Shown: positions 30,001 through 59,979, counted from the stretch's first letter. The stretch is 64,000 nucleotides of DNA from Acidobacteriota bacterium (GCA_965263035.1 OZ253580.1:5024001-5088000), one strand, 5' to 3'. Made by a program: numbers and translations. Notes: generated from the letters alone by a model not told the origin.

Positions 30001-30087
30001 GGTGGAGGAAGAGGACGGCTGCGGCGGACGACGCCGAACGACCCGGGCGCGGCAAGAGAGGAAAGGGACCCCGCAAGGGGCGCCCAT

Positions 30088-31747: not shown

Positions 31748-31889
31748 GGTTCAAGTCCTCCTCTCGCGCGAGCCGGACCGGCTGCTGCCGGACGGGGGCG
31801 AGTCGTTCGTAGGCGCCGGCCAGCCGGTCGGGCAGATGGCGGTCGAAGCGGTACTCGAAATGCACCGCCAACGGCCCATCCTCAGCCAT
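31620..31889 (-). CDS. small protein of the LSR element, overlapping the LSR start (candidate directionality factor)
   Basis: ATG overlaps the end of the upstream regulator; lies inside element boundaries; function inferred from position only. Confidence 0.45.
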   Translation of the reverse strand: MAEDGPLAVHFEYRFDRHLPDRLAGAYERLAPVRQQPVRLAREEDLNHGQSRRHLRPSVLGPPEGERDDRQPDGRPSRARLQARLRRPA

Positions 31890-32211
31890 GCGGCTCCCGG
31901 GAGGCGAGCCAAGCGCGCAGGGCCCGCGCCACCACTTCGCTGACGGCGGTGCCCGTCGCGGCCGAACGCTCCCGCAAGCGTCGGATCAGGCCGCGCGGCA
32001 ACCGTACGGAGAGCACTTGCTTGCCTTCGGAAACCGGAACCGGCTGCGTCAGCCGCTGGGCTTCGCGCAGGTAGCGATAGGCTTGGCGGGAGGAGAGCCC
32101 GAGCTGGGCGGAGAGCCGTTTGACGGCATGGGGCAGGTCGGGGGAGTCCTGCAGCAGAGAGCGGGCCAGATTGAGCCGCTCGGCCTTGCCGGCTTGGGTG
32201 ACACGCCCCAT
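31882..32211 (-). CDS. HTH + ribbon-helix-helix (CopG-like) DNA-binding protein of the LSR element
   Basis: LSAQLGLSSRQAYRYL HTH-like segment, then VLSVRLPRGLIRRLRERSAATGTAVSEVVARAL RHH pattern. Confidence 0.7.
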   Translation of the reverse strand: MGRVTQAGKAERLNLARSLLQDSPDLPHAVKRLSAQLGLSSRQAYRYLREAQRLTQPVPVSEGKQVLSVRLPRGLIRRLRERSAATGTAVSEVVARALRAWLASREPHG

Positions 32212-45061: not shown

Positions 45062-47245
45062 TCATGGACGTGCGGCGTTGGAATCGCCACCCGCTTCGGC
45101 TGCGCCGCCGCGGCCCGGACCGGATTTCCGGGACCATTTGAGCCGCTCCCGATAGATTCTCTCCGCTTCGGCCAGTTGACCTAGAACCTCCCGTTGCTGG
45201 TGCAGGCTCTCGAAGGAGCCACCGGCGAGAGAGGTCTGGCGCATCTCGTCGAACCTCTCCAGGAAGAACTGCAGGGCTTCGGGGTCGGCGTAGGGCCGTC
45301 CGCCCACGGTGACGTAGACCGGAGTGGTGTGGGCAAAGAGATCGGGATTGTTGACCACCAATGGATGCTCTCCGCCGCGGACCCGAGCGGCCATCCAACC
45401 GCTGGACGGAACCCGGATGGTCCCCCGGTGAATCAAACTGGTCTCGTCCTTGAGCGGGATCTCCTGCAGGACCTCGCTGTTGAACAGAATCTCCACCCTC
45501 TCCATGGGAACCTGGGAATGCGCCTCCAACTCCAGCTCCACCGGTCCCGGCTCGTCCAGGGCGATCTCGCTTCCGGGAAGACGGCCCTGGACCCGGAAGT
45601 AGAGGAGAGGTCCGTTGCTGACGAAGGTCTTCCCCTGCTGCAGGGCCCGAACCCAGGACTCGTACGACAAACTGTCTCCGGTGTAGGCGTAGACTCGATC
45701 GCCGCCCAGGACCTTGTGGCGGCGGACGTTGTTGAAGGTGTCCGTTCCGGCCACTGCGCTCAGGCGCCATCCGCAATCCAGCAACAGGCGGTAGAGAGCG
45801 TTGGAACTCTCGGTGCTGGATAGGCCCAGGATCTCCATGCCGTCGACGGTTCCCAGGGCGGCGTCCACGGGGATCCAGCGTTGCCGGCCCAGAGAGGGGT
45901 GGACGTAGAAGACGGCGGCTCCTTCCTTGCGGACCTCCCGGACGGCGGTGGCGTTGGACGGGTAGTCAAAGGGGAAGAAACTGGCGGGGAACCCGTTGTA
46001 GGGGGGCTCCAGAAAACGCTTCAGGTTCAGGACGCCGATGTGTCCGTAGAGAGCGGGGCGGATCTCCTGGCTCCAGTAGAGGATATGCCGCGGCGTGCTC
46101 AGGGGATGGGGAGCCCCGGTGAAGTGCTGCCGGTCGTAGAGGACGGGTCCCTGCGAGTTGCAGACCAGGAGGTTGGCCACGTTCAAGTCCTCGGCCTCCA
46201 CCTGGAGGCGGACGTCGGTGGGGTTGACGATCTGGTCCATGGTCTTGTGGACCAGGTTGGGATGGATGTGGATGTCTCCCGAGTACCAGCCGCGGGAGGC
46301 CGCGTCGTGGAAGCGCTCCAATCGAAACTCCAGCGAGTTGGGGCCGGAAGGCTGCAGGTCGACGACCCGTTCCTGGTAGCGGTGCTCGAATCCCCGGACC
46401 ACGCGGATTCGGGTCTTGCCTGCCGGGAGGACCAAGCTGCTGGTTCCCCGCGTGTGAAAGTAGGCGCCCGCCCGGATCGGCGTATAGCGGAGATAAGTGC
46501 CCGAAGGGGCCCGCCCCAGGCCGTCGGAACCGACCACTTCTACCCGCGCGGGGACCATCCGGCCGTTTTCATCCAGAATCCGTATCTGGAGACGGCAGGA
46601 GGGGTTCCAAGCCAGGGGAAGACTCACACGGCGAATCCGGCCGTTGGTCCCAACCTGCAGGTCCAGATTCCTACTGCCCTCTCCCCAGACCCGGGCGATG
46701 ACGGCATGGACTTCCTGAGGGGCCAAGCGGACTTGTCGAGGCCGGAAATACAGCGGTCCCTCCGCCGGTTCCAGACTCACGCTCTGGGAACGGCGGGACA
46801 GGTTCCGAAGCAGGATCAATACCCGATTCTCCAATCCCCGAGTGAACTCCAGGCGGGATGGACGGGACTGGACCACCGGCGGGGCGACCTCGATCTTGAG
46901 CAGCTCAGGGGAGGAGAGGTTCCAGAGGGAGACGCTGATCTGGGACCTCACAACCGGAGCCGGTAGGACAGTGCGGTCACCGTAGACGTTTCTCTGGAGC
47001 ATGGTGAGAGGGCGGAACTGACCGTAAACGCTGAAGGCCGCCTCCCGATTCACCCGTTGGTTCAGGAGCAGTGCCGAGAAGAATTCGACGACGAGCCGGT
47101 GGCGGGGGTCCCGCATCTGAAGGCCGTCGAGGGTGTCTTCGGTCAGGCCGTAGGGATTGAAGAGCGGCTCCCCCGACTGACCGGGAAGGCTCGTCGACAG
47201 AAGTACCGCCAGAACGGGGACGAGCCACCATGATACTCGATTCAA
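45062..47245 (-). CDS. CehA/McbA-like PHP metallohydrolase, secreted
   Basis: GWYSGDIHIH, YGHIG, YVHP, AGTDT, GKTFVSNGP, AHTTPVYV. Confidence 0.82.
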   Translation of the reverse strand: MNRVSWWLVPVLAVLLSTSLPGQSGEPLFNPYGLTEDTLDGLQMRDPRHRLVVEFFSALLLNQRVNREAAFSVYGQFRPLTMLQRNVYGDRTVLPAPVVRSQISVSLWNLSSPELLKIEVAPPVVQSRPSRLEFTRGLENRVLILLRNLSRRSQSVSLEPAEGPLYFRPRQVRLAPQEVHAVIARVWGEGSRNLDLQVGTNGRIRRVSLPLAWNPSCRLQIRILDENGRMVPARVEVVGSDGLGRAPSGTYLRYTPIRAGAYFHTRGTSSLVLPAGKTRIRVVRGFEHRYQERVVDLQPSGPNSLEFRLERFHDAASRGWYSGDIHIHPNLVHKTMDQIVNPTDVRLQVEAEDLNVANLLVCNSQGPVLYDRQHFTGAPHPLSTPRHILYWSQEIRPALYGHIGVLNLKRFLEPPYNGFPASFFPFDYPSNATAVREVRKEGAAVFYVHPSLGRQRWIPVDAALGTVDGMEILGLSSTESSNALYRLLLDCGWRLSAVAGTDTFNNVRRHKVLGGDRVYAYTGDSLSYESWVRALQQGKTFVSNGPLLYFRVQGRLPGSEIALDEPGPVELELEAHSQVPMERVEILFNSEVLQEIPLKDETSLIHRGTIRVPSSGWMAARVRGGEHPLVVNNPDLFAHTTPVYVTVGGRPYADPEALQFFLERFDEMRQTSLAGGSFESLHQQREVLGQLAEAERIYRERLKWSRKSGPGRGGAAEAGGDSNAARP

Positions 47246-47443: not shown

Positions 47444-49237
47444 TCATTCGGGGAAATAGCTCAGGTCCCACTCTCCCAGCTTCCACAATGGACTGGAAGT
47501 CGGTTCGGGTTCGGGCCGGCCGGCCATGATCCAGGCGGCAATCTCCTCATGGTGACCCAGACGGGCCAGCGTCTCGGAGGCCTGGCCGCCGGCGATGGCG
47601 GTGTCCCAGAAGGCCAGATGCTCGACTCCCATGGAGTAGAGCTGGCCGGCCTTGTTCCGGTATTGAGCGGCGTCCAGATTTCGGGGCATCACATTGAGCG
47701 CCAGACGGCAATCCCCCGCGCGGGCCAGGCGAACCCAATAGGTGACGTCGGCGGGGTCTTCCCAAGCGGTCTGAAAGCTGAACAGGCTCCGGGCCGAGGT
47801 GTAGGGGATCAGCGTGTCCACCAGACCCTCCTGAACCCACCGCTCGACGTCAATCCCGTAAAGCAGATTCTCCTCGCGGGAGCCGAACAGCCAGGCGGTG
47901 ACCGGGAGGGGCGCGGACGCGCCCTGTTCCTGGGCGGCCTCCGCCAGTTCGGCCTTGAGGTCCTCCATGAAACCGGTGAGGACCCGGCTCTTGTAGGCCA
48001 GCCAGCGGGGATCCGTTTCGGGCAGGCGCCGGGGGTCTACTCCGAACTCCTCCTGGAAGCCCTCCACCAGCGGCCTTTCGTACTCCAGGAAGGGGGGCTG
48101 CCGGTTGTAGAGAATGGCGATGCCGTCGATGGGATGCCCGGTCATCTCCCGGATCAACGAGAGGACGTAGCGGCGAGTTTCGGGAAAGGCATACGACAAC
48201 CCGAGCGAGGGCCGGCCGTCGCGGCCCACGCAACGGAGCTCGGGGCGCTGGTCGTAGAGTCCGCCGCGATTGAATTCGTCGAACGGCGGAGGCCAGTAGA
48301 AGGGTCGCCAGCCGATTCGGTAACAGGCGTGGAACTCCATCCCCAGTTCGTGAGCGAAGTCGGCGGCGACGCGAAAGGGATCGATTCCGCGTTCGACGTA
48401 GCCGTCCCAGGCTTCCCGGGCCAGACGGTCGTAGCGCCTGGGGGGATCCTGGGTCCGGATGCCCCGGTGGTCCCAGACCCGCCCGATGCGGGTCAGGTAG
48501 TTGCAGATGTCCCCGTGGGCGCCGTCCCAGTAGATGCGTCCGAAATCGGTGTGACGGTAGGGTTCCAGTTGGGCCTGAATGGCCGTCTCTTGGGACCGGC
48601 CTCCCGGCATTCGGTATCCCCGGTCGCCGTCGAACCAGGAGTCGTTGTAGGCGAACAGCCGGCGATGGGTCGGGTCGGACCGGTCATGTTCCAGGTTTCG
48701 GACCTCTTCGCCGGTGAGGGGGACCAGCTTGATGTAGGCGAGCCAGACCTTGCCGCTGATGTTGCCGAAGGCCTGTTCGTCGGGCACCGCCCGCTGGCAC
48801 GGTTGCCGGAACGCCAGGGTCTGGCCCGACAGGTCGGCGGTTTTCCAGAAGACGTCCTGGATTCTGGGGCCCTGTTTCTGATCATTTGCCGGGACGCCCC
48901 AGGGGCGTTCGCTGGGGACGGGAAGATAGATGAGCGAGAACGCCGGATCTCCGCTGAGCCGGGCGAAGACCCGTTGAGCCTCATAGGGCCGCCACGCATT
49001 GTTGAAGAGGCCGACATAGACGTCATGCCACCCCTGGACCTCGAGCGGGTAGGTGATCTCCGCCGCCTCGGTCTCTTCCCCGGCGAAGAGGAGCGTTCCC
49101 GCGGCAGTATCGGTCTCGAACTCCATCATTCGCCAGGCAAACCGGCGGGCCGTGCGACTGAGGGCGGTCGCCGGCTGGCAGCGGTCCAGATCGGCCCGGT
49201 AGACGGGATCGTTCTGCCTCCGGAATCGATCGAGCAT
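47444..49237 (-). CDS. DUF187/GH10-like TIM-barrel protein with N-terminal domain
   Basis: GGAG RBS before MLDRFRR; GRIYWDG, LSYAFPETR, IDGIAILYNR, FQEEFGVDPRRLPETDPRW. Confidence 0.7.
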   Translation of the reverse strand: MLDRFRRQNDPVYRADLDRCQPATALSRTARRFAWRMMEFETDTAAGTLLFAGEETEAAEITYPLEVQGWHDVYVGLFNNAWRPYEAQRVFARLSGDPAFSLIYLPVPSERPWGVPANDQKQGPRIQDVFWKTADLSGQTLAFRQPCQRAVPDEQAFGNISGKVWLAYIKLVPLTGEEVRNLEHDRSDPTHRRLFAYNDSWFDGDRGYRMPGGRSQETAIQAQLEPYRHTDFGRIYWDGAHGDICNYLTRIGRVWDHRGIRTQDPPRRYDRLAREAWDGYVERGIDPFRVAADFAHELGMEFHACYRIGWRPFYWPPPFDEFNRGGLYDQRPELRCVGRDGRPSLGLSYAFPETRRYVLSLIREMTGHPIDGIAILYNRQPPFLEYERPLVEGFQEEFGVDPRRLPETDPRWLAYKSRVLTGFMEDLKAELAEAAQEQGASAPLPVTAWLFGSREENLLYGIDVERWVQEGLVDTLIPYTSARSLFSFQTAWEDPADVTYWVRLARAGDCRLALNVMPRNLDAAQYRNKAGQLYSMGVEHLAFWDTAIAGGQASETLARLGHHEEIAAWIMAGRPEPEPTSSPLWKLGEWDLSYFPE

Positions 49238-49375
49238 AGCAGCGGCTCCAGGAGGCGCCTGCGCCGGTCTCGGGGGCTCCTCCTTGGGACACCGGATTGT
49301 ATCCAGCCGCAATCGGGGGGATCAAGCGGTCTCTTTGAACCGGACAACACGGCTTGTATAGTGGGCGGCGCCAAC

Positions 49376-52300
49376 ATGATCCCTCCCCTTGTACACACCT
49401 TCCATCTGGACGAAGGAGCCGCCTTTCGCTGGCGCTTCGCGGGGCTGGTCCTGGGGGGCCTGCTCCTGGTGGCCTACTGGCAGGAGTGGATCGTCTCCCC
49501 CTTTCCCTGGGACCTGGGCCTCATCCTGACCTTCCTCTACGGGTACAGCACCTTCCACCGAGCGTTCCAGGACGTGATCTCCCGGCGGATCAGCGCCGAG
49601 CAGGCGGTGACTCTGGCAGCCTTGGCCGCGCTCTACGTGGGCGAGTATCTGGCCGCCGCCGAGGTGGTTTACATCATGCTCGTGGGCGAGACCCTGGAGG
49701 CCTACGCCTCCAGGAGGTTCCACACCGATTTGACGCAGCTTCTCTCGATGCTGCCCCAGGAGGCCCACCGCTGGGGAGACGACGGCGAAGAACACGTGGC
49801 GCTGGGAGAACTCCGGCCGGAAGACCGGGTGGTGGTCTATCCGGGCGAGAGGGTCCCGGTGGACGGCGTGATCGTGGAAGGGGAATCGCTCCTGGACGAG
49901 AGTTCCATCACGGGAGAATCGGTGCCCCGGGAGCGGTCAATCCGCGACGAGGTCTACGCCGGGAGCGTGAACCAGACCGCCCGGCTCCTGATCCGGGCCC
50001 GCCATGTGGGCGAAACCACGGTGTTGAACCGGATCGTGGAACTGGTGCGCCAGGCCCGGGAGAGCAAGGCTCCCATTCAGCGGACTGCGGACCGCTACGC
50101 CCAATGGTTCCTGCCCCTGGTGCTGGGAATCGCGGTCCTCTGTTACGTGGTGACGGGTGACTGGATGCGCTCGGTGGCGATCCTGATCGTGGCCTGCCCC
50201 TGCGCCATGGTCCTGGCGACACCGGCGGCCGTGCTGGCCACCATCAGCGCCCTGGCCCGGAAGGGCATCGTCGTTAGGGGCGGGGTCCAGATCGAGGAGC
50301 TCTCCAAGATCGACTGCTTTGCCTTCGACAAGACTGGGACCCTCACCCGGGGCCGGCCCGAGCTGGTCCGGGTGATCCCCTTCGGAGAGTTTCGGCCCGA
50401 CGCGATCCTGGGTTGGGCGGCATCCCTTGAGTTCTTTTCCGAGCATCTCCTGGCCAAGGCCATCCGGGAAGCGGCGGAAACCCGGGGTCTCGACGTTTCT
50501 CCCGGGGAATCGGTCCAAAGGCACGCCGGTCTGGGTCTGGAGGGAACGCTGCCCTCCACCGGCGTTGAGGCGGGTCCGACCGTACTGGTGGGCAGCGCCC
50601 GGTTCCTAGAGCAGCGGGGAGTGACCCTCTCCAAGCCGGAGCAGGATGCCCTGGATCAGGCCGCGTCCGAGGGAGGCATCGCCGTCCTGGTGGGGTGGGA
50701 AGGGCAAGCCGCCGGAGTCCTCCTCCTGCGGGATCAACCCCGCGAGGAGGCGGGCCGGGCAGTGGCCGAGCTGCGTCAGCTGGGGATCCGGAAATCGCTG
50801 CTCTTGACGGGGGACAACGAGAAGGCGGCGCTGCGGGTGGCCCGGGAGGTGTCGATCGCCCAGGTCCACGCCGGCCTGCTCCCGGAGGAGAAGCTGGCCC
50901 ACCTGGAGGATCTCAAGCTCCAGGGCCTCCGCGTGGCGATGGTGGGAGACGGAGTCAACGACTCGCCGTCACTGGCCGCCGCCCATGTGGGCATCGCCAT
51001 GGGGGATACGGGGACCGACATCGCAGCCGAAGCGTCGGGCGTGGTGCTGGTCGGAGATGGCGGACTGGATCGCCTGAAGCCGTTGCTCCTAATGAGCCGC
51101 CGCGCCGTCAAGACCATCCACGACAACATCTTCTGGTTCGGTCTGGTCTTCAATCTGGCCGCGGTCATGGCCGCCTTCTGGGGGTACCTGAGCGCGGTGG
51201 GCGCCGCCGTGGTCCACCAGGGGTCCTCGTTCCTGGTCCTGATGAATTCCCTCAAGTTGCTGGACCGCCGGCCGTCGGAGTTTCTTCCCCACGGGCTTGG
51301 TCACCGGCTTCACCATCTCCAGCACCGGTTCCACCACCTTCAGCACGATCTTCAGCATCTTCAGCACGACTTCCTCCACTGGTTGGACCATCGGAATCCG
51401 GCCCATCTTTTCCATCATTTTCTCCACTGGGCGGGCCATCGCAAGATGTCCCTCCTGCGCTGGGCCGGGACCGCGGCCGCCTTGGCGTATCTGATCTCCG
51501 GAGTCCGGATGCTGGCCCCGGAGGAGGTGGGTGTGGTCCAGCGTCTGGGCCGGCTCCTCGAGGGGTCGTTGGACCCGGGCCTTCACTACGTGGCTCCTTG
51601 GCCCGTGGAGACCCTCCACCGGCTCCGGCCCGCGCAGGTCCGCACCGTGGAGCTGGGTTTCCGGATCTCCGACTCGGCGCCCGAGGCCGAAGTGGGGCCG
51701 GCCGCCTACGAGTGGAACATTCAACATCGCCAGGGGCGCTATCTGCGGAGGGAAGACGAGGCGCTCATGCTCACGGGAGATGAGTATCTGGTGGAGGTCA
51801 ATGCGGTAGTCCACTACTCCATCTCCGATTTCCACCAGTACCTCTTCGCCAGTTCGAACCTGGAGTCCACCTTGCAGTTCCTGTGCGAGAGCGCCTTGCG
51901 GCAGGTGGCTGCCACGATGGAGTTGGATCGGATTCTGGCCCTGGACCGGCGGACCATCGAGAGCGCGGCGATGGAGATGGTCCGAGCGGAGGCGGACCGC
52001 CTGGGCCTGGGGGTCCGAGTCCAGGCGTTCCACCTCCAGGACGTACATCCGGCGCTGGAGGTGGTGGGGGCGTTCCGGGACGTGGCCAGCGCCCTGGAGC
52101 AGAAGAGCCGTATGATCAACGAAGCGCATGCCTACGCCAACGAGCGGGTGCCCATTGCGGCGGGCGAAGCCCAGGGACGCCAGATCCAGGCCCGGTCCTA
52201 TGCGCTTTCCCGGGTCAGGCGCTCCGAGGGCGAGTCCCGCCGTTTCGATTTGCTCTACGGCGCCTACCGGCAGTCTCCGGAAACGACGCGCATCCGGATC

Positions 52301-52447
52301 TACCTGGAAGCCGTCGAAGCGGGCTTGGCGGGTAAGAAGAAATACATCCTGGACCAGAGTTCGGGACGACGGAAGATGCTCCTGTTTCGTAATTCGGTGT
52401 TCAATTTCGGAGACTTCGAGAAGGCGGTCGCCGGCCGCGGGCAATGA
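49376..52447 (+). CDS. P1B heavy-metal ATPase fused to a C-terminal HflK-like SPFH domain via a His-rich linker (1023 aa)
   Basis: TGES, ACPCAMVLATP, DKTGTLT, SEH, TGDN, MVGDGVNDSP; His heptads; then GVVQRLGR, PGLHYVAPWP, MLTGDEYLV, AFRDVASA, RIRIYLEAVE. Confidence 0.9.
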   Translation: MIPPLVHTFHLDEGAAFRWRFAGLVLGGLLLVAYWQEWIVSPFPWDLGLILTFLYGYSTFHRAFQDVISRRISAEQAVTLAALAALYVGEYLAAAEVVYIMLVGETLEAYASRRFHTDLTQLLSMLPQEAHRWGDDGEEHVALGELRPEDRVVVYPGERVPVDGVIVEGESLLDESSITGESVPRERSIRDEVYAGSVNQTARLLIRARHVGETTVLNRIVELVRQARESKAPIQRTADRYAQWFLPLVLGIAVLCYVVTGDWMRSVAILIVACPCAMVLATPAAVLATISALARKGIVVRGGVQIEELSKIDCFAFDKTGTLTRGRPELVRVIPFGEFRPDAILGWAASLEFFSEHLLAKAIREAAETRGLDVSPGESVQRHAGLGLEGTLPSTGVEAGPTVLVGSARFLEQRGVTLSKPEQDALDQAASEGGIAVLVGWEGQAAGVLLLRDQPREEAGRAVAELRQLGIRKSLLLTGDNEKAALRVAREVSIAQVHAGLLPEEKLAHLEDLKLQGLRVAMVGDGVNDSPSLAAAHVGIAMGDTGTDIAAEASGVVLVGDGGLDRLKPLLLMSRRAVKTIHDNIFWFGLVFNLAAVMAAFWGYLSAVGAAVVHQGSSFLVLMNSLKLLDRRPSEFLPHGLGHRLHHLQHRFHHLQHDLQHLQHDFLHWLDHRNPAHLFHHFLHWAGHRKMSLLRWAGTAAALAYLISGVRMLAPEEVGVVQRLGRLLEGSLDPGLHYVAPWPVETLHRLRPAQVRTVELGFRISDSAPEAEVGPAAYEWNIQHRQGRYLRREDEALMLTGDEYLVEVNAVVHYSISDFHQYLFASSNLESTLQFLCESALRQVAATMELDRILALDRRTIESAAMEMVRAEADRLGLGVRVQAFHLQDVHPALEVVGAFRDVASALEQKSRMINEAHAYANERVPIAAGEAQGRQIQARSYALSRVRRSEGESRRFDLLYGAYRQSPETTRIRIYLEAVEAGLAGKKKYILDQSSGRRKMLLFRNSVFNFGDFEKAVAGRGQ
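51302..51385 (+). repeat. 4 x 21-bp imperfect tandem repeat encoding His heptads
   Basis: CACCGGCTTCACCATCTCCAG / CACCGGTTCCACCACCTTCAG / CACGATCTTCAGCATCTTCAG / CACGACTTCCTCCACTGGTTG. Confidence 0.8.
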
Positions 52448-52511
52448 TCCGGAGGCGCTGTCCGTGTTGGCGCCGCCCGGCGGCGGACGTCAATCGATGG
52501 AGAACAAGTAG

Positions 52512-53411
52512 ATGACCCGAACTCGGAAAATAATCCGGAACCGGTTCTTCTGGATCCTGATCATATTGATCCTGTCCTTTCGGAGCCTGTTCTTGGTGAA
52601 CGAACAGGAGATGGTCCTGGTCACCCAGTTCGGCCGGCCTGTCGCCCAATACAAGGATGCGGGGCCCCGCCTCAAATGGTTCTTCCAGGGGCTTACACGC
52701 ATCGACAAACGTCTCCACCTGTACAATCCGCGGCCCTCCGAATATCTGACCCGGGACAAGAAGAATCTCCTGGTGGAGACCTACGTGATCTGGCAGGTGG
52801 AGGATCCGCTCCAATATCTGCGGACCGTCGGAGATCGCTCCGGTGCCGAAATGCGCTTGCACGACATCGTGTGGTCGTCGGTCTCCGCCGATCTGGGCCG
52901 GACCGAGCTTTCCGAATTGGTGGCTACGGACCCGGACCAGGTTCGCCTGGAGCCCTTGATGGAGAAGCTCACACACGAGTGCGATGAGACCTCCCGCCAA
53001 CGTTATGGAATTCGGATCGCGTCCGTGGACGTGAAGCGGATCAATCTGCCCACCCAGAACCGAGAGAGCGTCTATGCCCGGATGCGGGCCGAGCGGGACC
53101 GCATCGCCAAGAAATATCGAGCCGAAGGGGAGGAGGAGGCCCGCAAGATCCGGGCCGAGGCGGACCGCCAAGCCGAGGAGCTGCTGTCGGCGGCCTACAA
53201 GCAGACGGAGATCATCCGGGGCGAGGCGGACGCCCAAGCCACCCGGATCTACGGAAGGGCCTATTCCCGGGACCCCGAGTTCTACCAGATGGTACGGACG
53301 CTGGAAGCATACCAACGAATCCTGGACGACAAGACCACCGCGGTCCTCTCAGCGGACTCCGAGTTGCTCAAGCTGCTGACCAAGGGGAGAAACGGAAAGT
53401 TTGCCCGGTGA
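52512..53411 (+). CDS. hflC: HflC-like SPFH protein
   Basis: VTQFGRP, LTRDKKNLLVETY, VYARMRAER, GEADAQATRIY, DPEFY...RTLEAY. Confidence 0.88.
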   Translation: MTRTRKIIRNRFFWILIILILSFRSLFLVNEQEMVLVTQFGRPVAQYKDAGPRLKWFFQGLTRIDKRLHLYNPRPSEYLTRDKKNLLVETYVIWQVEDPLQYLRTVGDRSGAEMRLHDIVWSSVSADLGRTELSELVATDPDQVRLEPLMEKLTHECDETSRQRYGIRIASVDVKRINLPTQNRESVYARMRAERDRIAKKYRAEGEEEARKIRAEADRQAEELLSAAYKQTEIIRGEADAQATRIYGRAYSRDPEFYQMVRTLEAYQRILDDKTTAVLSADSELLKLLTKGRNGKFAR

Positions 53412-54331
53412 ATAACTGGTTGCGAGAAAATGTCCTGCTGCTGCTGGCGGTGCTCATCGCCCTGTATCTGGCTTCCGGGATCTACTATGTCCCCGCAGAT
53501 CAGCAGGCGGTCACGGTGCGCCTGGGCCGGCTTATTCCGGAGCGGATCCAACCGGGTCTCCAGTATGCCTGGCCCTATCCGCTGGAGCAGGTGATCCTCT
53601 TGAAGACCAGCGAAGCCCAGCGACTCACCATCGGGGGCACCGATCTGGACCGGGCGTTGGGTGTACGGGCCCTGGTGGAGGACGACTCGCTTCTGAGCGG
53701 TGACCAGAACCTGGTCCACTTCCGCGCTTCCATTCAGTACTTCATCCAGGATGCGGGCCCCTATCTGTTCCGGTCTCGGAGTCTTTTCCGGGTTCTGGAA
53801 GCTCTTCTCTACCGGACCCTCTCCCGAGCCGTTTCCGTCCGGGGGGTCGACGACGTGCTCACCACAGGCCGGATCGAGATTCAGAATCGGGTCCGGGAAG
53901 ATCTGCAACGGGAGTCGGACCGGTTGGATTTAGGCGTGGCCGTGACTGGCGTGGCCCTGGAACAGGTCCTTCCACCCCAACAGGTTCGAGACGCGTTTCT
54001 GGAGGTGGCCAACGCCAGGGAGGACCGGAACCGGATCGTGCAGGAGGCGAGGGGCTACTCCAGCGAGCTGCTGCCCAGGACCCGGGGCCAGGCGCAGGAA
54101 AACCTCCAGCAGGCTCGCATCTATGGACGTGAAGTGGTGGACCGGGCCCAAGGCGAGTCCCAGCATTTCCTGAGCCTGTGGGGAGAGTACCGGCGCCATC
54201 CCACCGTCACCACGGTCCGGCTCTTTCTGGAGGCCATGGAGGAGATCCTCCCGCGCACCCGCAAGATCATTCTGGACGACGCGGGAAGCAAACAGGGTCT
54301 GGACCTGGATATCTTCGCCCTGGAGGAGTGA
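53408..54331 (+). CDS. hflK: HflK-like SPFH protein
   Basis: PGLQYAWPYP, LSGDQNLV, PPQQVRDAFLEVANAREDR, ARGY...LPRTRG, VRLFLEAMEEIL. Confidence 0.85.
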   Translation: MNNWLRENVLLLLAVLIALYLASGIYYVPADQQAVTVRLGRLIPERIQPGLQYAWPYPLEQVILLKTSEAQRLTIGGTDLDRALGVRALVEDDSLLSGDQNLVHFRASIQYFIQDAGPYLFRSRSLFRVLEALLYRTLSRAVSVRGVDDVLTTGRIEIQNRVREDLQRESDRLDLGVAVTGVALEQVLPPQQVRDAFLEVANAREDRNRIVQEARGYSSELLPRTRGQAQENLQQARIYGREVVDRAQGESQHFLSLWGEYRRHPTVTTVRLFLEAMEEILPRTRKIILDDAGSKQGLDLDIFALEE

Positions 54332-54367
54332 CGGAAGCCGGCGAGGGGGAACTTCGGGTAAACGGAG

Positions 54368-54841
54368 ATGGAACCGAGAAAATGGGTCTCCCTGCTGGCG
54401 ATCCTGGGCTGCTTCCTCTATTTCGCCTCCCGCGATCCGCCCATCAGGGAAACAGGAAGGGAAGAGAGTCCCGACGACGTCCTGATCGCCATGGTCCAGG
54501 CCATGGAGCGCGGTGACGTGCAAGCGCTCCAGGAGTGCTTCGGGGGAGACTTGAGGCGGCGCCTCGAGAACCTGTTGGCGCGGGAATCAGGACCCCGGCT
54601 GGGCGAGTGGCTCCGGAGACGGGGAGCCGCAGTCAAGGGGCTCGCCATTCTGGACCAGGAGGAGCTGGGTCCGGATCAGGTCCGGGTCCTGACCGAGACG
54701 GTCTACAACGACCGCAACACCCGGCAGTCCTTCCGGTTGGAGCGGGAGAACGGATCCTGGAGGGTGACCCAGAGCGATTTCGAGATGGTCAGCGACTGGG
54801 AAAACGATTTTGGGAAGTCGATTCGCGATGTGGAGCGTTAG
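54368..54841 (+). CDS. small membrane-anchored protein, possibly NTF2-like
   Basis: N-terminal TM helix; AMERGDVQAL...FRLERENGSWRV pattern. Confidence 0.6.
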   Translation: MEPRKWVSLLAILGCFLYFASRDPPIRETGREESPDDVLIAMVQAMERGDVQALQECFGGDLRRRLENLLARESGPRLGEWLRRRGAAVKGLAILDQEELGPDQVRVLTETVYNDRNTRQSFRLERENGSWRVTQSDFEMVSDWENDFGKSIRDVER

Positions 54842-55001
54842 TGACTCTGGAGAGTCAGCAGTGGGAGCATCTCGCGCCGCCGTCGGCTCAATAATGCGTG
54901 GTGTTGGAATCCATTCCGGATCGGCCACGATTGTCCTACCGTGGGGGACGCCTCGTGAGCCTTAGCGATGTGAACTCTTCGTACCTTGATTAGCGCTCGA
55001 C

Positions 55002-57455
55002 GTGCGAGATCTTCTCAAGAAACACTTCGGCTTTGACAATTTTCTGCCCCTCCAGGAGGAGATCGTCTCGAGTGTCCTGGATGGGCAGGACACGTTGGTG
55101 CTCATGCCGACGGGCGGGGGCAAGTCCCTCTGCTATCAGCTTCCCGCGTTGCGACTGGACGGGTTGACGTTGGTGATCTCGCCCTTGATCGCCCTCATGA
55201 AGGACCAGGTGGATGCCCTGAAGGCCAACGGCATCGCCGCGGGTTTCATCAACAGCGCCCTTACCCGGAGCGAGATCAGTCGGGTTGAGAAACAGGTCCG
55301 GCGAGGCTCCCTCAAGATCCTGTACGTCGCCCCCGAAAGATTGGCCCTACCTCAATTCAGGGACTTTTTGAAACCTCTGAGGATCGGCCTCGTAGCCGTG
55401 GACGAGGCCCACTGTATCTCCGAGTGGGGTCACGACTTCCGGCCGGATTACCGCCGCCTCGGCAACCTGCGTCGCGATCTGTCCGGAGTTCCCTTCATTG
55501 CCTTGACCGCCACTGCCACCAAACGGGTCCGCTGGGACATCGCGCAGCAGCTCGGACTGAAACAGCCTGCAAGATTCATTGCCAGCTTCAACCGCGCCAA
55601 CCTCAACTACGCGGTGCGGCCGAAACGAAATGCCTTCGACGGACTTGTGGAATTGCTGGAGAAATACGATGGGGAGTCCGCTATCGTGTACTGCTTCTCC
55701 CGCAAAGGGACTGAGGAAGTGGCGGCGAGTCTACGCGATGATGGTTTCAAGGCACAGCCCTACCATGCCGGGCTCGAGAGTCAAGTGCGGCGGGAGACGC
55801 AAGACAAGTTCATCAAGGATGAGGTGCCCATCATCGTGGCCACCATCGCCTTTGGCATGGGCATCGACAAGTCGAACATCCGTCTGGTGGTCCACTACGA
55901 CCTGCCCAAGTCCTTGGAGAGCTACTACCAGGAGACCGGCCGGGCTGGACGCGACGGTCTCTCCAGCGACTGCGTCCTCTTCTACACCTACGGCGACAAG
56001 GTGAAACAGGATTATTTCATCGACCAGATCGAAGACGAGATCGAACGGCGCCGATCGCGGGACAAGCTGGCAAAGGTAGTCGGGTTCTGCGAGTTGCAGA
56101 GTTGCCGCAGGAGCTACCTGCTGCGCTACTTCGGCGAAGCTTGGGAGCAGGAAGATTGCCAAGCCTGCGACGTCTGTCTCACGCCCCGGGAGGAGTTCGA
56201 TGCCACGGAGATCGCCCAGAAGATCCTGTCGGCGGTGGTGCGTACGGGCGAGCGGTTCGGTGCTGGCCACGTCATTCGGGTGCTACGGGGATCCGGAGCC
56301 AAACGGATCAAGGAACTGGGACACGACCGTCTCAGTGTCTACGGAATTGTTGACGATTTTCCCGAGGTCGAACTCATTGAGGTTTCCAGGCAGTTGGTGA
56401 CCAGGGGTCTTCTGTTCAACAACGGACGCGATTACCCGACGTTGGGGATCACGCCGGGCGGGTGGAAGTTCCTGAAAAAACGGGAAAAGCTGACCCTTTC
56501 CAGGCCCCAGAGCCAGGAGGACCGCACGGACTCCCCGGACCGGAGGACTCGGGAATACGACCGCACCCTCTTCGAGAAGCTACGCGGACTGCGCGGCCGG
56601 ATTGCCACCCGGCTGGGCGTGCCGCCCTATGTCGTATTCAGCGACGCGACGCTCCAGCAGATGGCGCAGTGGATTCCCCAGAGCCGCGAGACCCTGTCAC
56701 GCATTTCCGGCGTGGGCTCCGCGAAACTGGAACAGTTGGGCGGTGAGTTCCTCGAGGCCATTCGGTCTCACGCCCGTGAACACGGTCTGGAGGACCGCAC
56801 GCCTCCATCCCGAAATCGCGACGCGAGCGGCGGATCAAAGCGTGGAGACAAAAACGGAAAACCGGCCTACAGCGTCGATGAGATCCGTCAAGAACACGCC
56901 CGAGCCTATGAGAAGTGGTCTCCGGAAGAAGACGAGGAGCTGGTTCGGAAACATGGCACGGGAACGAATGTTTCGGATCTGGCCGAAGATTTCGGGAGAC
57001 GGCCCAGCGCGATCCGGTCCCGCTTGAAAAATCTCGGTCTCAGGAAGCCCGGCACCAAGGACCGAAGTCCCACCTACGATCAGACGGGGCGGCTGTTTCG
57101 CCAGGGACTGTCCATCGAGGAGGTGGCGCGGCGGCGCGGCCTGACGCAGGGCACGATCGTCAGCCACCTGGAGTTTCTGGCAACGGCCGGCGAGCAACTC
57201 GACCTGGACCGGCACCTGCCGCCGGCGGAGAGCACGGAGAAGATCGTTGCGGCCTTCCGGGAATTGAGCAACTTGTACACGGCCCTGAAACCGGTCAAGG
57301 AGATGGTTGGAGAGGATTGTTCCTACGAGGAAATAAGATTGGTGCGAATCTTCTTGCGGCAGCAAGGTTCATTGGCGGCCACTGACGAAGGGACGGGGCG
57401 CGAGGGGGCGGCGCTGGTTGATCCTGAATCGCGGGACGATCGCCCTGAACGGTGA
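55002..57455 (+). CDS. recQ: ATP-dependent DNA helicase RecQ with HRDC and extra C-terminal HTH domains
   Basis: MPTGGGKSLCYQLP, VDEAHCISEWGHDFRPDY, ATIAFGMGIDK, QETGRAGRDG, CRR...CQACDVC, HRDC VPPYVVFSDATL. Confidence 0.96.
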   Translation: MRDLLKKHFGFDNFLPLQEEIVSSVLDGQDTLVLMPTGGGKSLCYQLPALRLDGLTLVISPLIALMKDQVDALKANGIAAGFINSALTRSEISRVEKQVRRGSLKILYVAPERLALPQFRDFLKPLRIGLVAVDEAHCISEWGHDFRPDYRRLGNLRRDLSGVPFIALTATATKRVRWDIAQQLGLKQPARFIASFNRANLNYAVRPKRNAFDGLVELLEKYDGESAIVYCFSRKGTEEVAASLRDDGFKAQPYHAGLESQVRRETQDKFIKDEVPIIVATIAFGMGIDKSNIRLVVHYDLPKSLESYYQETGRAGRDGLSSDCVLFYTYGDKVKQDYFIDQIEDEIERRRSRDKLAKVVGFCELQSCRRSYLLRYFGEAWEQEDCQACDVCLTPREEFDATEIAQKILSAVVRTGERFGAGHVIRVLRGSGAKRIKELGHDRLSVYGIVDDFPEVELIEVSRQLVTRGLLFNNGRDYPTLGITPGGWKFLKKREKLTLSRPQSQEDRTDSPDRRTREYDRTLFEKLRGLRGRIATRLGVPPYVVFSDATLQQMAQWIPQSRETLSRISGVGSAKLEQLGGEFLEAIRSHAREHGLEDRTPPSRNRDASGGSKRGDKNGKPAYSVDEIRQEHARAYEKWSPEEDEELVRKHGTGTNVSDLAEDFGRRPSAIRSRLKNLGLRKPGTKDRSPTYDQTGRLFRQGLSIEEVARRRGLTQGTIVSHLEFLATAGEQLDLDRHLPPAESTEKIVAAFRELSNLYTALKPVKEMVGEDCSYEEIRLVRIFLRQQGSLAATDEGTGREGAALVDPESRDDRPER

Positions 57456-57465
57456 ACTGACACGG

Positions 57466-59979
57466 ATGTGGAAGTACTTCCTGCACCTGGCTGCGCTCGC
57501 CAGTCTGTCGCTGGCTCAACCGATCTTTGATCTCCTCTCTCAATTCCCCCAGTTTCTCGTCGCGCATCACGCCGGACTCTTGGAGGTGCTGCTGCTCGTC
57601 CTCCTCCTGACCCTCCTCGTGCCGGGATCGGTGGTGGCCTTGGAATCATTCCAGGACCGGATCATGGGCGCCCGTTACAGGCTTCCAGGCACGGGTATCG
57701 CTCTGTTTGTATTTCCTCTCGCCCTGCTCATCCTGAAACTCCTCGAAGGGATTCCGGGAACGCTGCTGGTCGGCGCTGCAGTGCTGCTGGCGTGGCTCAG
57801 TCGCCGCGCCTATCTTCGTATTCGGCCTGTTCGGGTGTACCTGACGATTCTGTCGCCGGCGATTCTCATCGTGCCGATCCTGTTCCTGACCGGACCCTCG
57901 GTTCAAAGAATCATCACTCCCGCCAAGCCGCAGGGCGTCGCGCTCGCGAATGGACAGACAGATACCCCGATCGTCATGGTTGTCTTCGACGAACTGCCCC
58001 TTCGATCTCTCCTTGATCGCCGGGGTGCCATCGATTCGGTACGTTTTCCCAATTTCGCCGATCTGGCCGGTCGAGCCAACTGGTACCGGCGCACGACCTC
58101 CGTTTCCTACTCTACCCAATACGCTTTACCGGCCATCCTGACCGGAAATCTCCCGCAGGCAGACCATTCGTTTCTCCCTACCCTGGCCCACTATCCGGAC
58201 AATCTCTTCACTTGGCTTCGAAACTCTCACCGGCTCAATATTTCCGAGTCGATCACTCACCTCTGCCCCGACTGTCCGGAGTCCAAACCCGATCACCTGC
58301 GAAGAGCGTTTCGGCTGCTGGTGGATCTCCCGGTGATTTATCTTCATCTCGTTCTGCCCGAGGATCTCACGACGGGGTTGCCCGACATCCGTTATGGCTG
58401 GACCGTGCCGAATCAGCAGAGATGGCGGTTGGGCCACCCCGTCCGACAGTTCGAAGCCTTTTTGGAGTCTCTTCCGGAAAAGGGCGAGCCCAGTCTGAAT
58501 TTCATCCATGTGCAGATTCCTCATCTGCCCTGGATCTACCTTCCTTCGGGTAAGCGCTATCTATCGGGAGGGGACATGAGCTTGTTCACGAAGAGGGATA
58601 TCTGGACCCGAGACGAAACGCTGGTGACGCTGGCGTTCCAGCGCCATCTGCTACAGGTAGGTTTGGCCGACCGGCTCCTGGGCCAGCTGCTCCGGAAGCT
58701 GAAAGTTGAACGTCTCTACGACCGGAGCCTTATTATCGTCGTATCGGACCATGGAGTCGATTTCCAGCCCGGTGGGAACCGGAGAAAAATAACCGAGGCC
58801 AACTTCAAGGACCTTCTGACGGTGCCGCTTCTGATCAAAACTCCTTATCAGAAACTGGGCCGGGTATCGGATCGGCCCACACGCACCACCGACATCTTCC
58901 CCAGCATTGCCGAGATCCTGCGAGTTCCGACGCCGTGGCCGACCGATGGAATCTCGGTCAACGAAACTGCGATGACCAAGGAAAGAGATCAGGCGCCGAC
59001 TTCCCTCATCACGGTTCCTCCGTCCAAGTTTCTACATTATCGAACGACCGTTTGTTTGGAAGGAATGACGTTCGAAGTAAGGCAGGACGGGGCTTGGGCC
59101 CATTTGGGGCAAGTGATAGAACGCGGAGACAAGATCATTTTTTGGGGCTGGGCGGCAGACATGGAGACCTTGGAACCGGCCGAATCCATCCTAGTGTTCG
59201 TCAATGATGAACTGATCTTCCAAGGGATGACCCGGCACCCACGGCCGGATGTGGCCAAGTCCTTCAAAGCAGCGGAGCTGGAGGATTCCGGATTCTATCT
59301 CGAGCTTGGCCGGGACCTCTTCCAGGGAAGCCCGACAGTGCGTTGCTTTGCCGTTCTTGGGGATCGAATCCGCGAGGTGCAATATCCGCTCAGTTTCCCA
59401 TGGCCTATAGAACCGAAGCCGAATCGGGAAGAAACTCACTCCTCCAATTTCGATGGGACCTGTTGCATCGATCAGAAGCCGGCGCATTCTTTTCTGATCA
59501 CTCGCTCGCTGAGCCCGGAGACCCTGCGGGAAAGCCCTGGTTCCAGTGAATTTGAGACGGGTCTTCGCGAACTGGCCTGGGATTCGGGTCCGGACGGCGT
59601 GTTTACAATGGGCCCTGCTGACTCACTGCTCGGGAAGCCGCTGGATCAGTTGCGTGTGACCGTACGGACGGGACTGAGAATCGAATTGGATCAGCCCTCA
59701 CTCTACGAGAGGGTTCGACTCGATGATGACTTCATTCCGGCGGCGATCGAAGGTTGGGTCTCGGCAACGGATGCCAAATATGTGGCTATTGGCTTAAACG
59801 GAACTCTCAGGGCCGTTGCCCCGACGTTCGAGGGTCCCGACGGCCGGCATCGTTTCCAGGCTATCGTGCCGGAATCCGCCTTTCTGAATGGCGCCAACCG
59901 GGTTCGGATGTACGTGGTGGTACAGAAGGAGGGGAAAGTGGTACTGCTTTCCCCTCCCGAGAGCCGCGAGGCACTTTAA
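57466..59979 (+). CDS. multi-TM membrane protein with sulfatase/LtaS-like (alkaline phosphatase superfamily) domain
   Basis: several N-terminal TM helices; VFDEL, STQYALPAILTG, PHLPW, SDHG, RTTDIFPSI. Confidence 0.8.
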   Translation: MWKYFLHLAALASLSLAQPIFDLLSQFPQFLVAHHAGLLEVLLLVLLLTLLVPGSVVALESFQDRIMGARYRLPGTGIALFVFPLALLILKLLEGIPGTLLVGAAVLLAWLSRRAYLRIRPVRVYLTILSPAILIVPILFLTGPSVQRIITPAKPQGVALANGQTDTPIVMVVFDELPLRSLLDRRGAIDSVRFPNFADLAGRANWYRRTTSVSYSTQYALPAILTGNLPQADHSFLPTLAHYPDNLFTWLRNSHRLNISESITHLCPDCPESKPDHLRRAFRLLVDLPVIYLHLVLPEDLTTGLPDIRYGWTVPNQQRWRLGHPVRQFEAFLESLPEKGEPSLNFIHVQIPHLPWIYLPSGKRYLSGGDMSLFTKRDIWTRDETLVTLAFQRHLLQVGLADRLLGQLLRKLKVERLYDRSLIIVVSDHGVDFQPGGNRRKITEANFKDLLTVPLLIKTPYQKLGRVSDRPTRTTDIFPSIAEILRVPTPWPTDGISVNETAMTKERDQAPTSLITVPPSKFLHYRTTVCLEGMTFEVRQDGAWAHLGQVIERGDKIIFWGWAADMETLEPAESILVFVNDELIFQGMTRHPRPDVAKSFKAAELEDSGFYLELGRDLFQGSPTVRCFAVLGDRIREVQYPLSFPWPIEPKPNREETHSSNFDGTCCIDQKPAHSFLITRSLSPETLRESPGSSEFETGLRELAWDSGPDGVFTMGPADSLLGKPLDQLRVTVRTGLRIELDQPSLYERVRLDDDFIPAAIEGWVSATDAKYVAIGLNGTLRAVAPTFEGPDGRHRFQAIVPESAFLNGANRVRMYVVVQKEGKVVLLSPPESREAL

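Follow-up and report, generated by a model that had tools for sequence, protein, structure and literature searches.

What SPFH rings, such as those of HflK/C, prohibitins, stomatins, and flotillins, do to the membrane proteins that they surround is a long-standing question, and the clients of these rings are usually loosely bound and disputed. In the PacL-CtpC "effluxosomes" of mycobacteria, a P1B metal pump needs a co-encoded membrane scaffold and clusters in platforms (PMC9374683, PMC13460109). In the present study, we analyzed a four-gene cassette within a 64,000-nucleotide (nt) stretch of the genome of an Acidobacteriota bacterium (GCA_965263035.1 OZ253580.1:5024001-5088000; hereafter the window, in which positions are counted unless another sequence is named). 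The first gene of the cassette encodes a P1B ATPase fused to an HflK-type SPFH subunit (K1) and is followed by genes for an HflC-like protein, a second HflK-like protein (K2), and a small anchored protein. We propose, with a probability of roughly 0.55, that the locus is a self-contained scaffolded metal-export module in which an HflK/C-like ring would tether exporters, a reading in which we infer the assembly, the substrate metal, and the purpose. By our comparison, the closest structure to such a module would be the HflK/HflC cage of Escherichia coli, and the closest functional parallel would be the mycobacterial PacL-CtpC platform.

The E. coli cage, solved with FtsH (7vhp, 7wi3, 9cz1, 9cz2, and 9paw), and the cassette have in common paired HflK and HflC types, an N-terminal helix, an SPFH domain, and a coiled coil in each subunit, and adjacent overlapping genes. 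Unlike E. coli, which has two subunit types, the cassette encodes three, one of them fused to a metal pump and carrying an extra loop (K1). Furthermore, the E. coli genes lie in an operon with hflX, whereas neither ftsH nor hflX is found near the cassette and the genome carries a separate standard hflK-hflC pair. With PacL-CtpC, the cassette shares the combination of a P1B ATPase and a dedicated co-encoded membrane scaffold. CtpC has a CPC motif and a His-Asn-x-Ser/Thr helix signature, close to the His-Gln-x-Ser of the window pump, and the His-rich metal-binding tail of PacL1 resembles the His-rich linker in the clade of the window protein. The scaffolds themselves differ: PacL proteins are small, of the DUF1490 type, and cytoplasm-facing, and their foci form without flotillin (PMC9374683), whereas the cassette scaffold is of the SPFH type, covalently attached, and predicted to be periplasmic. 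None of the four cassette proteins has a Pfam match to DUF1490 or DUF6110 at E <= 0.01.

SPFH rings are reported to associate with channels and transporters (PMC13724742), and the cassette SPFH proteins show weak sequence matches to stomatin and QmcA. Nevertheless, stomatin- and flotillin-type scaffolds form homo-oligomeric rings with non-covalent clients, whereas the cassette has a fused client and a putative hetero-oligomeric ring of the HflK/C type. A search of the full-text literature, with subscription journals largely outside it, found no paper describing an SPFH-exporter fusion or a cassette operon of this kind; the single paper in which HflK and P1B both appear deals with type VII secretion. 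Within that scope, the statement of a preliminary description of the locus that no characterized example was known holds.

Conservation of the fusion gene and its operon

The preliminary description, made from the sequence, had claimed an intact P1B ATPase that runs in frame into a full HflK-like SPFH domain, separate hflC and hflK genes with a GTGA overlap, and a 157-residue anchored protein downstream. All of these features were recovered (Table 1). The fusion frame is stop-free, and its product has Pfam domains E1-E2_ATPase at residues 124-296, Hydrolase (HAD) at 312-537, and Band_7/SPFH at 715-920; the ATPase motifs CPC, DKTGT, and GDGVND are at residues 274, 318, and 524, respectively. 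As read in the window sequence, the stop of the hflC-like gene and the GTG start of K2 share the GTGA.

The fusion is not peculiar to this genome. A search with residues 600-1023 of the fusion protein among proteins of 562-1791 residues yielded 154 relative clusters at E <= 1e-3. Among the matches listed, 120 of 120 combine PF00702 with PF01145 and most also contain PF00122, at identities down to 38%; these matches, where named, are called "cadmium-translocating P-type ATPase" or "HflK" and come from Acidobacteriota, Bryobacterales, and Armatimonadota. We further scanned species-representative genomes and compared the open frames of the 45 related loci with the parts of the window cassette. 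The ATPase and HflK parts lie in one open frame in 41 of these loci, some of which end at a contig edge. In L034 the two parts are in different frames, the L053 contig begins within the HflK part, and L054 and L055 (Hyphomicrobiales) are ordinary hflK-hflC loci without a pump. The overlapping frames near the junction of L034 (4105-7255, on an Acidobacteriota chromosome) represent either a real frameshift or a sequencing error.

The partner genes are retained as well. Among the 43 cassette loci, the hflC-like gene is present in 40, K2 in 37, and the small gene, detected with a hidden Markov model (HMM) built from the family alignment, in 35, with all misses at contig ends; every locus that extends past K2 (35/35) has an HMM match to the small gene. 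Identity of the hflC-like protein across the related loci is 48-97%, and the fusion persists at identities of 93% to 37% across at least four phyla. The arrangement of the four genes is seen again in Acidobacteriota, Armatimonadota, Verrucomicrobiota, and Planctomycetota. Going by the titles of their records, the loci belong to Acidobacteriota, Armatimonadota (Abditibacteriales and "Zipacnadia" among them), Verrucomicrobiia, Planctomycetota, and Lentisphaeria, and one bin is labeled Clostridia. In L031 the small gene is encoded on the opposite strand, and in L033 it lies upstream of the fusion gene. A Bryobacterales assembly carries an IS110-family transposase gene (L041, 7546-9039, minus strand) between the fusion gene and hflC, and the same assembly holds a second, uninterrupted cassette (L043). 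These comparisons show a real and conserved fusion and operon, the fusion being old; with one frame in 41 of 45 loci and partners retained, relatives show neither a general stop between the two parts nor loss of the operon, either of which the preliminary description had named as grounds for rejecting it.

Independent assemblies also cross the junction. The stretch is contained, wholly or partly, in 20 public runs from 9 studies, and we aligned four of these runs to positions 49300-54900. Two metatranscriptomic runs of one study (X15 and X16) each provide one contig of about 5.7 kb that starts at 49383 or 49386, reaches 54900, and differs by 32 substitutions without a gap. A metatranscriptomic run of another study (X18) provides a 1348-nt contig (50842-52189) that spans the ATPase-HflK junction, gap-free and differing by 2 substitutions, and a run of a further study (X5) covers 49300-54900 fully without a difference. 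The sole reported indel falls in a spacer, at 54351, and none of the 28 listed substitutions within genes creates a stop. Of the RNA-library runs, X18 and X20, which contain about half of the stretch, are labeled "sponge metagenome".

Within the phylum of the window, cassette-type HflC (E <= 1e-60, 41-100% identity) occurs in 30 of 401 sampled genomes, a tally that includes the unpublished genome G049, and in 12 of 227 genera; it is present in each of the 4 other genomes of the genus and in all 6 of the family. The weaker of these matches may come from cassettes that carry a different exporter.

Pump, SPFH subunits, and small protein

Across 108 full-length members of the ATPase-fusion family, TGE (at residue 179) is kept in 107-108, DKTGT in 108, GDGxND in 104-108, and CPC (274-276) in 108, and the pump, judged from these motifs, is catalytically intact. 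None of the 108 has a CxxC before TGE, and the ATPase part lacks an N-terminal metal-binding domain. In the last two helices, N593 and H614 are invariant, Q615 is found in 107 members, S617 in 98, S618 in 96, and N624 in 101, and at position 592, 69 members have Val and 19 have Phe. When the ATPase part was compared with solved structures, it scored 320 bits with Legionella CopA (3rfu), 297 bits with the P1B-4 ATPase sCoaT (7qbz), and 280 bits with ZntA (4umv), so that overall scores favor no subclass clearly. With the last two helices alone, only 7qbz matches well (VHQGSSFLVLMNSLKLL versus VHEGSTLVVVANALRLL), the last helix, HQGSSFLVLMNS, aligning to HEGSTLVVVANA.

None of the described subclasses fits exactly. 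P1B-1 pumps, which transport Cu(I), are marked by Tyr-Asn in helix five and Met-x-x-Ser-Ser in helix six, both visible in 3rfu; in the alignment to 3rfu, F592-N593 stands opposite Tyr-Asn and H614, a His in all 108 members, opposite the Met of MALSS. P1B-2 pumps (Zn/Cd/Pb) combine CPC with a Lys in helix five and Asp-x-Gly in helix six; the window pump has CPC, residues 606-625 contain no Asp-x-Gly, K579 is kept in 20 of 108 members, and the ZntA model NF033775 gives 340 bits against a cut-off of 1240. The preliminary description had likewise noted that the last helix, with HQGSS at 614, departs from the typical Cu(I) and Zn/Cd signatures. The P1B-4 kind, for which SPC is listed (PMC13460109), has a sixth-helix motif His-Glu-Gly-x-Thr visible in 7qbz. 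Like sCoaT, the window pump lacks a classical N-terminal CxxC domain and its last helix aligns best there; unlike sCoaT, it has CPC in place of SPC and, in 107 of 108 members, Gln in place of Glu after the His, and its overall score is no better than with CopA and similar to that with ZntA. For P1B-6, the markers given are SCA in helix four and, between helices five and six, N-x18-H-N-x-(S/T), although mycobacterial CtpC, which has CPC, groups with this subclass (PMC13460109). The family has CPC and N593-x20-H614-Q-x-S, which differs in spacing and in Gln for Asn; CtpC was compared by its description only. By its sequence, the family, with CPC and N-x20-H-Q-x-S-S, is an undescribed variant nearest the P1B-4 and P1B-6 kind. 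Because His replaces the copper-type Met and a CxxC domain is absent, the substrate is more likely to be divalent, Zn(II), Co(II), or Cd(II), than Cu(I). The genome encodes only one further P1B ATPase, which is of the standard CopA type (TIGR01511, 561 bits) and has three CxxC motifs, YN, and MALSS.

The linker behind the pump was described as His-rich, which holds for the window protein and not for the family. Linkers of the 108 members range from 20 to 62 residues and have a median of 1 His; 65 members have none or one, and 22 have five or more. The linker may bind metal in the clade of the window protein; being His-rich in that clade only, it cannot be central to the module.

The three SPFH proteins are full-length HflK/HflC relatives of the cage-subunit type. 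K2 aligns to residues 83-349 of E. coli HflK, K1 to residues 147-358 (7vhp), and the HflC-like protein to residues 8-326 of E. coli HflC (145 bits to the HflC of 7vhp), the alignments covering the second half of the SPFH domain, the coiled coil, and the C-terminal segment. K1 matches the solved cage subunit weakly over its first SPFH half, which is the site of the extra loop, and over its membrane helix (to the E. coli HflK helix, residues 84-103). The matching cage entries contain 12 chains of each subunit (48 chains in 4 entries). In a quick maximum-likelihood tree of 79 SPFH proteins, C-type proteins are apart from K-type proteins (100% support), and the cassette HflC-like proteins are on one branch (84%) apart from housekeeping HflC. 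The K2 clade (96%) includes the K2 proteins of cassettes with cation diffusion facilitators (CDF), and the clade of ATPase-fused K1 (96%) is nested among K1 proteins fused to CDF and SO_0444-type exporters. The K1, HflC-like, and K2 subtrees group the loci alike, indicating that the genes are co-inherited. A complex prediction in which the small protein was the partner of K2 plus the HflC-like protein scored 0.02 (mark, 0.32) and weighs neither way.

The extra loop of K1, PAAYEWNIQHRQGR, is an insertion in the first SPFH half that is missing from E. coli HflK and from housekeeping HflK. Its residues P775, Y778, E779, W780, H784, G787, and R788 are kept in 106-108 of the 108 ATPase fusions. Of the 108 ATPase fusions, 107 contain W-x3-H-x2-G, a pattern also present in 22 of 38 CDF fusions, 30 of which have the looser W-x3-H, and in none of 23 K2 and 22 HflC-like proteins. 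Judging from these patterns, the loop is a shared mark of the exporter-bearing subunits, whichever exporter they bear.

The cassette is an addition to, not a substitute for, the usual HflKC. The genome has seven Band_7 genes: three in the cassette, two elsewhere (L001 and L002), and two in a standard pair of hflK (336 residues) and hflC (309 residues) with an ATGA overlap (G000 5093099-5095035, equal to L004 1384-3320). This pair, which answers the question raised in the preliminary description of whether a canonical hflKC exists elsewhere, starts 14.3 kb downstream of the cassette, 5 kb past the end of the window, and scores 280 and 258 bits with the HflK and HflC models versus 183-194 bits for the cassette subunits, so that the cassette represents an extra, dedicated set. 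As had been described, neither ftsH nor hflX is adjacent: the sole true ftsH is at 3.55 Mb of the genome, 1.5 Mb from the cassette, and hflX at 5.98 Mb, about 0.9 Mb away; no ftsH homologue was found in the window or in 47 related loci.

The scaffold is shared by other exporters. A search of the full protein library with residues 640-1023 gave 7205 matches at E <= 1e-3 and 618 at E <= 1e-30, and from the 150 best representatives we scanned with Pfam the 74 whose length was 449-810 or above 1040 residues. Band_7 is combined with Cation_efflux (CDF) in 39 of the 74, with an ATPase or HAD domain in 25, and with ArsP_1, named by NCBIfam as an SO_0444-family Cu/Zn efflux transporter, in 1; the other 9 have an unassigned start of 110-170 residues before Band_7 and are probably cut fusions. 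In CDF fusions, the CDF part is the membrane domain alone (positions 2-193 of 285), and two H-x3-D pairs (H40, D44, H141, and D145) are invariant or nearly so. Such a quartet is typical of Zn-type CDFs. CDF-type cassettes were sampled thinly, at two loci reached from the single-protein query P0161; both have the order fusion, hflC-like, K2, followed by a peptidase-like gene. The presence of the same HflK type on CDF and SO_0444-type exporters indicates that the module serves metal exporters generally. The view that the SPFH set is dedicated to a metal pump thus stands insofar as the set is extra, conserved, and co-inherited, and has to be widened insofar as the set is not specific to the ATPase.

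The small protein has an N-terminal helix with Arg-Lys ahead of it, followed by about 115 residues, with P35, G49, G60, G91, A93, E110, and W131 invariant and, outside the clade of the window, a C-terminus P-Y-G-T-P-V. The start of its gene abuts or overlaps the stop of K2 in many loci. The AlphaFold2 model (predicted local distance difference test, 79.3; predicted template modeling score, 0.67) consists of four helices followed by a four-stranded sheet, and a Foldseek search with it returned 70 PDB chains at E <= 0.001, with a best E of about 1e-5, those listed being nearly all NTF2-like. The predicted fold is shared with SgcJ (4ovm), 3k7c, and the DUF4783 protein 4orl (TM score 0.4-0.6), at only 10-21% identity; unlike these proteins, the small protein is membrane-anchored. 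Pfam gave no match for 22 of 23 members and one weak DUF6459 match (E 0.0014) for the remaining one; leads to DUF4864 and DUF4878 from an atlas search (0.90-0.91, with otherwise unnamed clusters) were likewise not confirmed by Pfam. A lipoprotein is ruled out, since the Cys of "ILGC" is confined to the clade of the window. The model thus suggests a membrane-anchored NTF2-like protein without a Pfam family.

Proposed scaffolded export and its alternatives

P1B ATPases end in the cytoplasm, and the HflK chain starts there as well, crosses the membrane as one helix, and continues as a periplasmic body. The join between the cytoplasmic C-terminus of the ATPase and the cytoplasmic N-terminus of HflK is therefore topologically natural, with the pump replacing the N-terminal tail of HflK. 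In the module that we propose, the ATPase would export a divalent transition metal, and the chain would run from its cytoplasmic C-terminus through the linker and a single membrane helix into periplasmic K1. K1 and K2 would alternate with the HflC-like protein in a ring or cage on the periplasmic face, holding several pumps in one fenced membrane patch, with as many pumps as there are K1 subunits per ring; K2, which is pump-free and retained in every cassette, those of the CDF type included, would dilute the pumps and limit crowding. The ring may cluster and stabilize exporters, or it could provide a special lipid patch or an outlet function through the invariant K1 loop, which may act at the periplasmic outlet of the exporters. 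The NTF2-like protein would be a fourth component on the periplasmic side, specific to ATPase cassettes.

Several points weigh against this reading. We infer the assembly of the ring, from homology and co-inheritance only, along with its stoichiometry, the topology, the metal, and the benefit, and the mutual binding of the subunits, ring formation, and placement of the pump inside or outside the ring have the same footing. The deep branching among K1, K2, and housekeeping HflK is unsettled in the quick tree. The metal is assigned from motifs only, in a family that fits no described P1B subclass exactly, and a His-rich linker as a family-wide metal-binding domain is ruled out by the median of 1 His. 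The small-protein alignment has no invariant Cys, His, or Met, and no homologue of the small protein was found in the two CDF-type loci examined. Finally, contigs from RNA libraries may contain DNA and thus show presence and continuity of the cassette, not its transcription.

Ranked behind the scaffold is a link to FtsH-dependent turnover, which we regard as unlikely. Here, the cassette ring would recruit or fence the single FtsH, and the tethered pump would be shielded or delivered, its abundance being controlled by turnover. All three subunits pass NCBIfam models named "FtsH protease activity modulator", they align to a cage that holds FtsH, the genome has one FtsH, and in enterobacteria the substrates of FtsH include the P-type ATPase MgtA. 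In addition, scaffold proteins may protect metal pumps from degradation (PMC13460109). However, ftsH is missing from the window and from the 47 related loci, a separate and better-scoring hflK-hflC pair is available for FtsH, and K1 has a loop of its own that housekeeping HflK lacks. The FtsH contact "Arg191 of HflK" (PMC12048511) was not used, as its numbering matched no Arg in the K2 alignment. Far less probable than any of these readings is that the HflK part is an inert leftover of gene-boundary loss or an assembly error: the different frames of L034 are what one would expect of it, whereas the fusion has persisted in four or more phyla at identities from 93% to as low as 37%, the stretch is present in independent assemblies of 9 studies, the contigs that cross the junction do so with 0 gaps, and both halves keep the signatures of their families.

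The third-ranked possibility, which we consider doubtful, is a periplasmic metal chamber, the idea put forward in the preliminary description. The pumps would discharge under a closed cage, and the metal would be passed to a periplasmic acceptor or client enzyme or sequestered; in its general form, the portable cage of K1, HflC-like protein, and K2 would be a receiving chamber for metal exporters of any kind, with the W-x3-H loop as metal acceptor or gate, K2 setting the number of pumps, and the NTF2-like protein as fourth subunit. The three unrelated exporter families that share the scaffold have periplasmic metal release as their common trait, the invariant K1 loop places Glu and His in the periplasmic SPFH part, and a conserved periplasmic NTF2-like protein is co-encoded. 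Nevertheless, the small protein lacks a conserved metal-binding signature, the genes next to the cassette include no conserved periplasmic metalloenzyme or chaperone (the widest flanking family occurs in 5 of the 20 diverse loci compared), and we know of no protein-helix wall that holds back ions. Were this possibility true, the cassette would be the first SPFH assembly with a client, a stoichiometry, and a chemical function readable from genes, and SPFH cages would gain a role beyond protease control.

Returning to the scaffolded export module, evolution has here welded the client to a ring subunit, with three unrelated metal exporters, and has kept the partners and the marker loop. The cassette thus offers a defined, expressible system in which ring assembly, client number, inside or outside placement, and the effect on transport are measurable. 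It also suggests that scaffolded metal-efflux platforms, so far represented only by mycobacterial PacL-Ctp pairs, arose independently elsewhere with a different scaffold.

Coordinates and surroundings of the cassette

Table 1. Features of the cassette, with positions in the window.
Feature	Position	Strand	Remarks
Fusion gene (P1B ATPase, linker, membrane helix, HflK-type SPFH subunit K1)	49376..52447	+	1023 residues, stop-free
ATPase part, residues 1-629	49376..51262	+	TIGR01525 (P1B ATPase) 540 bits, residues 78-628, cut-off 346
CPC motif, fourth core membrane helix, residues 274-276	50195..50203	+	
Last ATPase helix HQGSSFLVLMNS, residues 614-625	51215..51250	+	
Cytoplasmic linker, residues 630-688	51263..51439	+	17 His in 59 residues
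Single membrane helix of HflK part, about residues 692-710	51449..51505	+	Read from sequence; HRK before, PEE after
Periplasmic HflK-type body of K1 (SPFH domain, coiled coil, C-terminal part)	51506..52444	+	TIGR01933 (HflK) 183.5 bits, residues 711-1001, cut-off 159.4
K1-specific loop PAAYEWNIQHRQGR, residues 775-788	51698..51739	+	
hflC-like gene	52512..53411	+	299 residues; TIGR01932 equivalog 193.7 bits, cut-off 134.4
Second hflK-like gene (K2)	53408..54331	+	307 residues, GTG start; TIGR01933 equivalog 190.4 bits, cut-off 159.4
Gene of small protein (N-terminal anchor helix and predicted NTF2-like domain)	54368..54841	+	157 residues; conserved in related loci
Sigma-70-like promoter match (TTGAAC, 16 nt, TATAGT)	49335..49362	+	Consensus match only

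The start of the fusion gene was placed at a position, MIPPL/MFFPL, common to the gene and its relatives; a longer upstream extension of the frame would be antisense to the neighboring gene. The promoter-like match ends 13 nt 5' of the fusion ATG, and 2 such matches were seen versus 0.5 expected in shuffled sequences. The X15 and X16 contigs stop at 49383 and 49386, and run X5 extends further. Contig ends 7-10 nt inside the fusion gene, together with the promoter match, give a weak hint of a very short, near-leaderless transcript.

Downstream, a RecQ helicase gene (55002-57455, plus strand; 817 residues, with a C-terminal HTH_40 after RQC and HRDC) begins 160 nt past the cassette and is not conserved beside it in other phyla. 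It is followed by genes of the sulfatase/alkaline-phosphatase superfamily (57418-59979, plus strand), which likewise occur a few kb downstream in L027, L031, L033, and L036; such genes are very common in these phyla, and their proximity may be due to chance. Upstream of the window cassette, two large divergent genes (47444-49312 and 45062-47245, both on the minus strand) are present, one with a weak GHL10 glycosyl-hydrolase-like match below cut-off and the other (727 residues) without a Pfam hit and with a GDIHIH motif. Elsewhere, a gene matching DUF3604 (862-1034 residues) lies directly upstream of the fusion on the same strand (L033 1031-4132, L035 1098-3683, and L042 1605-4229), and a 1171-residue upstream frame in L051 (673-4185), without a Pfam hit, groups with the DUF3604-type genes by BLAST only. 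A relationship of the window gene at 45062-47245 to these proteins was considered and is unsupported, the BLASTP matches being short (E 0.002-0.007). Farther upstream, at 30001-32000, the window has a G+C content of 0.707 and a GC skew of -0.16, compared with about 0.62-0.66 and a positive skew around it.

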